IMG/VR virus record: IMGVR_UViG_3300044732_001653 | Span: 7,518-71,517 of that record | Direction: 5' to 3' (one strand) | Length of the DNA: 64,000 nucleotides | From: a virus | Made by a program: the position numbers and the translations under genes | Part shown: piece by piece, positions 31,430-32,295 of the stretch | Numbering within the stretch: position 1 is the stretch's first letter | Layout: every line of letters begins with the position of its first letter | Notes under the pieces: model-generated | What the model saw: only the letters and a program-made list of their open reading frames with translations | Told to the model about the DNA's origin: nothing | Database searches by the model: none

Positions 31430-31660
31430 ATGAGCGACAATCCGCCAGAAGTAATCGTGACCCGCGAGATATTCGACGCCCTGAGTTCAGGTCGCGGCGA
31501 CTGGCATCACACGGTCCTGCCGGGGGAAGCGGCGGTCGACGTCATCTACTACGAGAATGACGTCCGCAAGAGCTACATCAGCATCAACCTCGACGCCGCC
31601 GAGGCGTTTGCGGCTGCGATCGTGGCGTGCGCGAATGAGATGAGGGCCGCGGGCGCATGA
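31430..31660 (+). CDS. Hypothetical protein
   Basis: GGAGG RBS; coupled ORF. Confidence 0.55.
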   Translation: MSDNPPEVIVTREIFDALSSGRGDWHHTVLPGEAAVDVIYYENDVRKSYISINLDAAEAFAAAIVACANEMRAAGA

Positions 31661-32295
31661 ACATCTCCCGTCGATCATTTGCCCGCTCGATCATCGCCGC
31701 CGTGGCCGGCGCGACGGTGCTTCGTCAGGCCGTGGCGACTCCGGTCGAAGCGGAATGCCACAAGCACACCGTCGAGGAAATCTGCGACACCTTTGGCGTC
31801 CCGGTCAACTTGGTGACAGAGGGTCCGCGGACGATCATGGAGAAGGGGTACGCCTTCGACCATGAGGCGTCCAATGAGTGGAAGTCGTATTCGCTCCAGC
31901 CCCGCCGGCTATCGGTAAGCGTGAGCGTCTCACGGGAACTGCTGGAAGACTCCCCTCTCTCAGTCTCGACGATTGTTCAGAGCCGGCTTGCCCTCGCCTT
32001 GGCGAAGGCTGTCGACGATCAGTGGTGCAAGGGGGCCGAGTACACCGTCTCGACGATCTGCAATGGCGATCTCGCAAACCCCTGGCTCACCTACACGCAC
32101 GTCGCCACCGAGGACAAAGACTATCGGATGCAGCGGCTCCGCGATGAGTGGCGTCGGATGCACGTCGGCCCCAGAAGCGTGACCGCGCTGCCCGAAGGCT
32201 GGAAGTGCGGCTCATACTCAATGGCCGACGAGTGGCATTCGCTCGCTCGCGGTCGATTCGACTTCTCGCTTGACGATCAAAAGACACCCCGCTAG
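31657..32295 (+). CDS. Twin-arginine signal protein with portal-like and capsid-like segments
   Basis: 'ISRRSFARSIIAAVAGA'; internal 'TVEEICDTFGVP' and 'VSRELLEDS..LALALAKAVD'. Confidence 0.65.
   Translation: MNISRRSFARSIIAAVAGATVLRQAVATPVEAECHKHTVEEICDTFGVPVNLVTEGPRTIMEKGYAFDHEASNEWKSYSLQPRRLSVSVSVSRELLEDSPLSVSTIVQSRLALALAKAVDDQWCKGAEYTVSTICNGDLANPWLTYTHVATEDKDYRMQRLRDEWRRMHVGPRSVTALPEGWKCGSYSMADEWHSLARGRFDFSLDDQKTPR

Follow-up and report, generated by a model that had tools for sequence, protein, structure and literature searches.

A capsid-derived core behind a twin-arginine-type leader in a fast-changing gene upstream of tatA of an uncultured lake phage

How a stretch resembling a phage capsid protein comes to lie behind an export-type leader, in a gene remote from the head genes, and what its product might do there, is the question raised by ORF212, an open reading frame (ORF) of an uncultured, integrase-bearing lake phage of ~71.5 kb. 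The window analysed is a 64,000-nucleotide stretch comprising bases 7518-71517 of the 71,517-bp virus record IMGVR_UViG_3300044732_001653 (whole record, G000), and positions below are those of the window unless G000 or another locus is named. ORF212 (31657..32295, 212 amino acids (aa) plus stop) is intact and coding-like; it and every feature whose coordinates are given below in this form (x..y) lie on the plus (+) strand. An initial annotation, made from the DNA alone, had described the product as an assembly of portal-like and capsid-like segments behind a twin-arginine (Tat) signal, and the ORF and all of the peptides that it quoted were found at 31657-32295. In the product, a Tat-type leader (aa 1-29) is followed by a flexible linker, then by a folded core of ~100 residues and lastly by a variable tail. 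In the reading that we favour, and to which we give an even chance, ORF212 is a genuine gene in a fast-changing cassette and encodes an accessory protein that is routed by Tat and has an exapted capsid fragment as its sole folded part.

A capsid-derived core

The capsid likeness resides in aa 68-127 of ORF212 (31858..32037), which correspond to the strand and long 'spine' helix of the HK97 fold. Pfam Phage_capsid (PF05065) matched this stretch with an E-value (E) of 4.4e-7 and 30.0 bits (cut-off 24.2), aligning it with profile positions 59-118 of 280; the match is above the curated cut-off, but covers only 60 of the 280 profile positions. When aa 64-149 were scanned alone against the same profile, E was 1.9e-7. 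The same stretch was matched by PHROG major-head families 617 and 10, and NCBIfam TIGR01554 aligned with aa 36-127 at E 3.8e-5, with a score of 23.0 bits that falls below its cut-off of 27.5. Of the 23 family members, scanned singly, 13 matched PF05065 at E<=0.01 (best 2.2e-9). A comparison of alignments by hhalign, using an ORF212 family alignment of 19 sequences (A1) and an alignment of 23 capsid proteins of this phage clade (A5), placed aa 74-127 on capsid residues 229-284 with a probability of 65%, a P value of 6e-5 and a score of 40.8, compared with 22.3 for the best of 60 column shuffles and 13.8 for the reversed alignment. P0003, which is identical to aa 61-212 of ORF212, was omitted from the family alignments A1, A2 and A6; A1 was also made without P0017, P0019 and P0020, and A6 without P0019-P0023 except P0022. 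The capsid-like segment of the initial annotation is thus borne out by a profile match above the curated cut-off and by an hhalign score above all 60 shuffles.

Further comparisons point to the same region of capsid proteins. The top sequence-profile match in the PDB was the RcGTA capsid (6tba, residues 162-206, E 0.068), and 25 of the 30 matches by ESM-Atlas features were Phage_capsid clusters with a score of 0.90, which is modest evidence, this score being reached by 4-10% of shuffled proteins in the tool's calibration. ORF212 shares 31% identity over 51 aa with the phage's own capsid protein. The divergent alleles found in L005, an otherwise 92-97% identical phage, and in the homologue P0022 match the capsid protein of the present phage at E 1.5e-4 and 7e-7, respectively, and the divergent alleles align to the same capsid positions, 216-284.

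The structure predicted by AlphaFold2 from alignment A1 had a mean predicted local distance difference test (pLDDT) score of 61, with block values of 78-90 for aa 81-160. The predicted folded core spans aa 64-174 (31846..32178) and comprises a strand (84-92), two helices (93-98 and 100-123), a hairpin (129-152) and a further helix (154-169), and the linker preceding it (aa 30-63) is of low confidence (pLDDT 41-54 at aa 33-55). In an exhaustive VIA structural search, 26 of the best 50 rows were phage, virus or encapsulin shells, with Z scores of 5.5-7.7 and ~93 residues aligned; these included KHP40 (Z 7.7), Kp7 (Z 7.5) and HK97 itself (1ohg, Z 6.7, 93 residues, model 71-173 on chain 151-379). 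The sequence and structure alignments agree in registry, residue 70 of the model falling on residue 160 of 6tb9 and aa 75 falling on residue 162 by sequence. A Foldseek search of BFVD returned one unnamed row (4.8e-4) with a root-mean-square deviation of 26.9, which is uninformative. The divergent L005 allele was modelled from alignment A6 with a mean pLDDT of 46.7. Prediction of a complex between aa 30-190 of ORF212 and the clade capsid protein scored 0.00 and gave no answer, which speaks neither for nor against binding.

The complete HK97 fold is not present: beside the spine helix, the model has a single strand, a hairpin and one further helix, and ~93 of its residues align to chains of 236-584 residues. 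In the model, the core is what remains of an HK97 capsid protein once the A-domain and N-arm are gone: it has the strand behind the E-loop, the spine helix and a small sheet. It shares with the HK97-family capsids (PF05065/TIGR01554; HK97 gp5 1ohg, RcGTA 6tb9/6tba) the strand and spine-helix signature and superposes on their P-domain and spine helix, but lacks the A-domain, N-arm and delta domain and covers ~60 of 280 profile positions. The real capsid protein of this phage has 467 aa and is encoded in the head module, whereas ORF212 has 212 aa, carries an export-type leader, lies outside that module and is hypervariable. ORF212 is a capsid derivative and not a capsid protein: it lacks a complete fold, is encoded in the wrong place and does not reach the cut-off of TIGR01554. 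Reuse of an HK97-fold element outside the virion is a trait that it shares with encapsulins and other exapted HK97-fold proteins (PMC8987985), and encapsulin shells were among its structural rows; encapsulins are cytoplasmic shells that keep the whole fold, whereas ORF212 keeps a fragment and an export leader.

Portal-like motifs and the origin of the segments

Two short motifs of ORF212 resemble adjacent stretches of HK97-family portals (PF04860). The N-terminal motif (aa 33-55, HKHTVEEICDTFGVPVNLV; 31753..31821) aligns with PF04860 positions 218-240 and lies inside the linker of aa 30-63, and the C-terminal motif (aa 158-183, MQRLRDEWRRMHVGPRSVTALPEGWK; 32128..32205) was matched to portal sequences by BLASTP and hhalign. 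Against PF04860, ORF212 scored 21.1 bits, below the cut-off of 39.1, in an alignment of aa 33-98 that overlaps the capsid match. Scanned alone, the N-terminal motif gave E 0.055-0.12 alongside equally weak unrelated families, and aa 150-212 had no Pfam match at E<=10. PF04860 was detected at E<=0.01 in 8 of the 23 family members (best E 3.3e-5), and those members that were scanned individually scored 10.8-21.1 bits, below the cut-off; P0020, which has no capsid piece, still scored 20.7 bits on 25 residues. When the family alignment was compared with 22 portals of the clade (A3), hhalign placed aa 145-183 on portal residues 218-259 (P 0.0054, score 28.6, probability 6.8%) and aa 40-127 on residues 281-368 (P 0.025, score 24.0, probability 1.9%), the best of 60 shuffles scoring 23.2; these top two alignments are the two motifs of the initial annotation.

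Compared with the phage's own portal, the C-terminal motif matched residues 291-319 by BLASTP (E 0.008 in a three-protein set), and the portal was also its best match in a tblastn search of the whole genome (E 0.066). The two motifs resemble own-portal positions 291-319 and 328-352, which are adjacent, but they stand in reversed order in ORF212, and this adjacency was also found in family members. No portal chain was listed in the PDB profile search. The N-terminal motif can be read as capsid sequence because TIGR01554 aligns with aa 36-127 in one piece, and this 'portal' motif may simply be capsid sequence. For the C-terminal motif, a search for internal similarity gave a tandem repeat of ~91 aa (best diagonals at offsets 90 and 92), which was equalled or beaten in semi-global alignment by 76 of 2000 shuffles (p ~0.04), and hhalign of the two halves of ORF212 gave P 0.033; if this repeat, for which the evidence is only suggestive, is real, the motif could have diverged from a copy of the capsid-like strand.

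With a score of 21.1 against 39.1 bits, motifs in reversed order and no collinearity, ORF212 is not a portal, and any portal component is minor and confined to short motifs. The portal part of the initial annotation is weakened accordingly: both motifs exceed the shuffles in hhalign, but are below every curated cut-off. Its proposal of a gene made from structural-gene fragments holds for the capsid part, by profile hidden Markov models, language-model features and predicted fold, and is only suggestive for the portal part. The idea that ORF212 was recently copied from the head genes of its own phage was considered and rejected, there being no DNA similarity and only the low capsid identity given above; alignment to the phage's own genes yielded that capsid match and the portal match at E 0.008, neither of which is that of a recent copy. 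No full-length donor protein was found among 1.84 billion representatives.

A fast-changing cassette directly upstream of tatA

The homologue search proposed in the initial annotation returned 22 homologues of ORF212, of 116-288 aa and in seven clusters at 50% identity, among which pieces of the mosaic have been deleted, duplicated and swapped. The leader is identical at 25-27 of its 29 residues in 20 of the 22, against an identity of 29-84% in the mature parts; the reading frame is uninterrupted in every homologue as well as in the alleles of L005 and L006. P0019 and P0020 are deleted for ~92 and 91 residues, respectively, including the entire capsid-like core, and these deletions lie between short repeats (TVxxIC; EKGY/DKDY). 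P0008 carries a tandem duplication, P0012, P0016 and P0018 have no FGVP motif, P0022 and the L005 allele have a longer, different capsid-like middle, and 3 of the 22 (P0007, P0013 and P0018) end in a +1-frame reading of the same 3′ DNA. A profile search of viral, metagenome and genome contigs with the family alignment found no relative, near records possibly having been outside the search.

The exchange is sharply bounded in L005. The blastn match ends at 31679, 23 nucleotides into the ORF and directly after the RRSF codons, and resumes at 32230, at codon 192, so that aa 8-191 (31680..32229) constitute a swapped cassette with no DNA match in that phage. The L006 allele, of 126 aa, has a different leader that is yet twin-arginine, its RRSF codons showing three synonymous and no non-synonymous changes; the L005 leader, likewise different, also remains of twin-arginine type. 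ORF212 is one allele of a fast-changing cassette between conserved genes, directly upstream of tatA.

The gene itself has the character of its neighbours. Its ATG overlaps the TGA of the preceding 76-aa ORF (ORF76) as ATGA, an overlap retained in L005 and L006, and a GAGG is sited ~10 nucleotides 5′ of the start. Guanine-cytosine content by codon position is 0.60/0.48/0.78, the third-position value (GC3) of the neighbours being 0.77-0.85, and the neighbour-like pattern is present in every sub-segment of ORF212. Contigs of X11, a lake-water run from 2020 (not marked as a possible source), tile the exact allele with zero differences; this tiling of the locus rests on contigs only, with patchy cover. 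No RNA data were listed among the sequencing runs holding the ORF212 sequence. A lake-metagenome contig of X18 links 31427 to 32263 with unidentified letters between, which suggests a strain with both ORF76 and ORF212 replaced and hints at further alleles.

The leader (aa 1-29; 31657..31743) was read by eye as MNISRRSFARS, a hydrophobic stretch and RQAVA|T, that is, an SRRSFAR motif, an h-region (IIAAVAGATVL) and a basic residue followed by AVA|T. The twin-arginine consensus is S/T-R-R-x-F-L-K. The Tat signal of the initial annotation is visible in its motif, h-region, basic c-region and AVA-T site and is further based on the Tat context of the gene, but was not reported by TIGR01409 at E<=10 or by PF10518 at E<=1, which counts against it. 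The next gene downstream of ORF212 encodes a TatA of 72 aa (32326..32544; PF02416 E 6.2e-9, 35.4 bits, cut-off 21; TIGR01411 E 4.3e-10 but below cut-off). Relatives of this tatA were found at 10 loci in viral contigs; 8 of the 10 contain a twin-arginine-leader ORF, which in 4 cases stands immediately before tatA. Among these tatA loci, capsid likeness occurs only in alleles of the ORF212 locus. In the more distant phages L007 (5721-6026) and L011 (5723-6016), tatA is directly preceded by a different twin-arginine-leader protein of ~100 aa, which in hhalign shared nothing with the ORF212 family but the RR motif. In the family libraries used here, weak Tat-signal matches were all that was obtained for the other Tat-leader ORFs of related loci.

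ORF212 resembles small Tat substrates with dedicated Tat components in its SRRxF motif, mildly hydrophobic h-region, basic residue, AxA-like site and adjoining tatA, and differs from the known ones in being phage-encoded and in its cargo, a virion-protein relic without a cofactor-binding family. In passages of a 2026 review of Tat and its evolution (PMC13673990), phages are mentioned only for phiX174 lysis and in the reference list. The literature listings and opening lines of abstracts that were searched held no account of Tat leaders fused to capsid or portal pieces, nor of phage tatA.

Two neighbours of ORF212 also carry leaders of this type. ORF163 (30935..31426) is the second twin-arginine-leader protein of the cluster (TIGR01409 19.7 bits, cut-off 16.7), with homologues in L005-L008 and L010 that form a conserved family ending in an '...I.V.W(R/A)' motif; ESM Atlas gave no usable match for it. 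ORF186 (33410..33970) has a third twin-arginine-type leader (MRRRDWLKSL...), and its mature part is replaced in L005: DNA identity is 94% up to 33569 (approximately the first 50 residues), the region 33569-34531 is swapped, and only the first 35 aa match the 139-aa L005 product (L005 7784-8203), at 94%. Searches of Pfam, PHROGs, NCBIfam and PADLOC left ORF163, ORF76 and ORF186 without a family, apart from the Tat signal of ORF163 and a weak PHROG of unknown function for ORF76 (E 0.098). Following tatA, a 95-aa ORF (32768-33055; swap 32776-33037) is exchanged in L005 for a 328-aa repetitive ORF rich in Ala, Glu and Lys (6443-7429), which makes a third swapped cassette within 3 kb.

The head genes (terminase, portal, prohead protease and capsid) sit just upstream of the window, with the portal gene at G000 1973-3799, the prohead protease, named by position and N-terminal sequence only, at G000 4296-5906 (536 aa) and the real major capsid protein gene at G000 6061-7464 (467 aa). 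ORF212, at G000 39174-39812, lies among replication and accessory genes (integrase at 20365-21261, which suggests a temperate lifestyle, helicases, primase-polymerase, GDP-mannose dehydratase, epimerase and PhoH); as the initial annotation had it, this is far from the head genes, the capsid gene ending 31.7 kb upstream. The protease is much longer than typical HK97-type proteases and may have an extra C-terminal domain. ARAGORN reported tRNA-Pro(GGG) of 84 nucleotides at 41605-41688, flagged in the initial annotation as an aberrant tRNA-like element, and tRNA-His(GTG) of 95 nucleotides at 48451-48545, both longer than usual. Relatives of the portal (L015-L018, 53-63% identity) occur in genome bins labelled Chakrabartia, Solirubrobacteraceae and Planctomycetaceae (two), and no host is named because these labels disagree.

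Routing and possible roles of the product

Because the export leader is conserved and a phage tatA adjoins the gene, the membrane or periplasm is the probable destination of the product. Tat substrates are exported after folding in the cytoplasm, TatA is required in excess over TatBC, and Tat export can saturate. The ORF212 protein would fold in the cytoplasm and be delivered folded by its leader to the Tat translocon of the host, where the additional TatA supplied by the phage would raise translocon capacity when phage Tat cargo is made in a burst. Once in the periplasm or at the membrane, the capsid-derived core could act as a mimic of a capsid surface or as a plain stable scaffold, with a job that may shift quickly between strains and could be, for example, to exclude rival phages or to handle an envelope or immune factor.

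Several observations weigh against this reading. In the predicted structure, pLDDT is below 50 in 88 of the 212 residues; all Z scores are below 8, a range that the tool calls common, and 24 of the 50 rows were unrelated alpha/beta folds. Foldseek with the whole model against the PDB returned nothing at E<=0.001. The phage's own capsid protein is missed by composition-corrected BLAST with ORF212, and Pfam finds no capsid match in the L005 allele and only one of E 0.067 in P0022. Since P0019 and P0020 are without the capsid-like core and P0023 (125 aa) has no capsid match, the core must be dispensable in at least some alleles, and the frameshifted 3′ ends together with the tandem duplication imply weak constraint on the mature part. 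The leader went unreported by both Tat-signal profiles, as given above, and no defence or anti-defence family was matched by PADLOC.

These points bear differently on the other explanations that were considered. That the likeness arose by chance, ORF212 being an orphan exported protein unrelated to capsid or portal, would fit the shortness (~55-60 aa) and Ser/Val/Leu-rich composition of the matched stretch, the Z scores below 8 and the ESM-Atlas score that some shuffled proteins also reach, but is very improbable and already disfavoured by the independent agreement of Pfam, NCBIfam and PHROGs, the margin of the hhalign score over the shuffle maximum (40.8 against 22.3, n=60), the matching of divergent alleles to the same capsid positions and the common registry of sequence and structure alignments. 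ORF212 could instead be evolutionary debris, in which pieces of head genes were landed by illegitimate recombination and left an ORF that is open and maybe exported, with a likeness that has no present function. The repeat-registered internal deletions of P0019 and P0020, the duplication in P0008, the frameshifted C-termini, the alleles without a capsid core, the low pLDDT outside aa 80-170 and the similar swapping of ORF95 and ORF186 between near-identical phages can all be attributed to such a process. An origin as debris nevertheless appears unlikely to us, as the frame is open in the 22 homologues, L005 and L006, GC3 is 0.78 throughout ORF212, the protein sequence of the leader is kept through synonymous change, and Pfam still picks up the capsid strand and helix in 13 of 23 members, at mature-part identities as low as ~41%.

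Two explanations give the capsid piece a task of a different kind. Some defence systems sense portal (Avs4) or capsid (CapRel, Lit), and in the cytoplasm the capsid and portal pieces might bind such host sensors as an immune decoy, one of the roles proposed in the initial annotation, blunting them or carrying them to the membrane by means of the leader. What ORF212 retains (the capsid strand and spine helix, and the portal motif) counts among the best-conserved parts of the two families, hypervariability fits an arms race, and Tat substrates reach their folded state in the cytoplasm, ahead of export. A cytoplasmic decoy for Avs4, CapRel or Lit is disfavoured because it would need neither an export leader nor a phage tatA; in addition, the portal likeness is marginal, no PADLOC family was matched, a sensor whose trigger surface is bound should become active rather than be silenced, and alleles without the capsid piece exist, and we therefore regard it as quite unlikely. 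Head assembly is the other candidate target: the fragment might co-assemble with the capsid or portal of its own phage or of a rival, poisoning assembly or tethering it to the membrane through an uncleaved leader, and so modify head formation or exclude superinfecting phages, another role that the initial annotation had proposed. The core does retain the part of the HK97 fold that makes inter-subunit contacts, and exclusion genes are common in the temperate lifestyle that the integrase suggests. The distance of 31.7 kb from the head module, the company of replication and accessory genes, the variability and dispensability, which speak against a morphogenetic role, and an own-capsid identity of only ~31% over 51 aa leave this with a low probability.

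The favoured reading, of a Tat-routed accessory protein built on an exapted capsid fragment, could also be extended. It is conceivable, with small probability, that ORF212 belongs to a widespread, undescribed 'mimic-and-route' class, in which a Tat leader joined to the most highly conserved virion surfaces (the spine region of the capsid, portal motifs) would capture a host or rival-phage factor recognising them and phage TatA would help to drag that factor to or through the translocon. If this were true, it would constitute a new principle of counter-defence or exclusion and would account for phages carrying tatA. The locus is a tractable test case, offering a 29-residue leader, a core of ~100 residues and natural alleles with and without the capsid piece. 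If the favoured reading is correct, phages turn parts of their own head proteins into accessory proteins for export, phage-borne tatA would be suggested to serve such cargo, and the purpose may touch conflict between phage and host or between phages.

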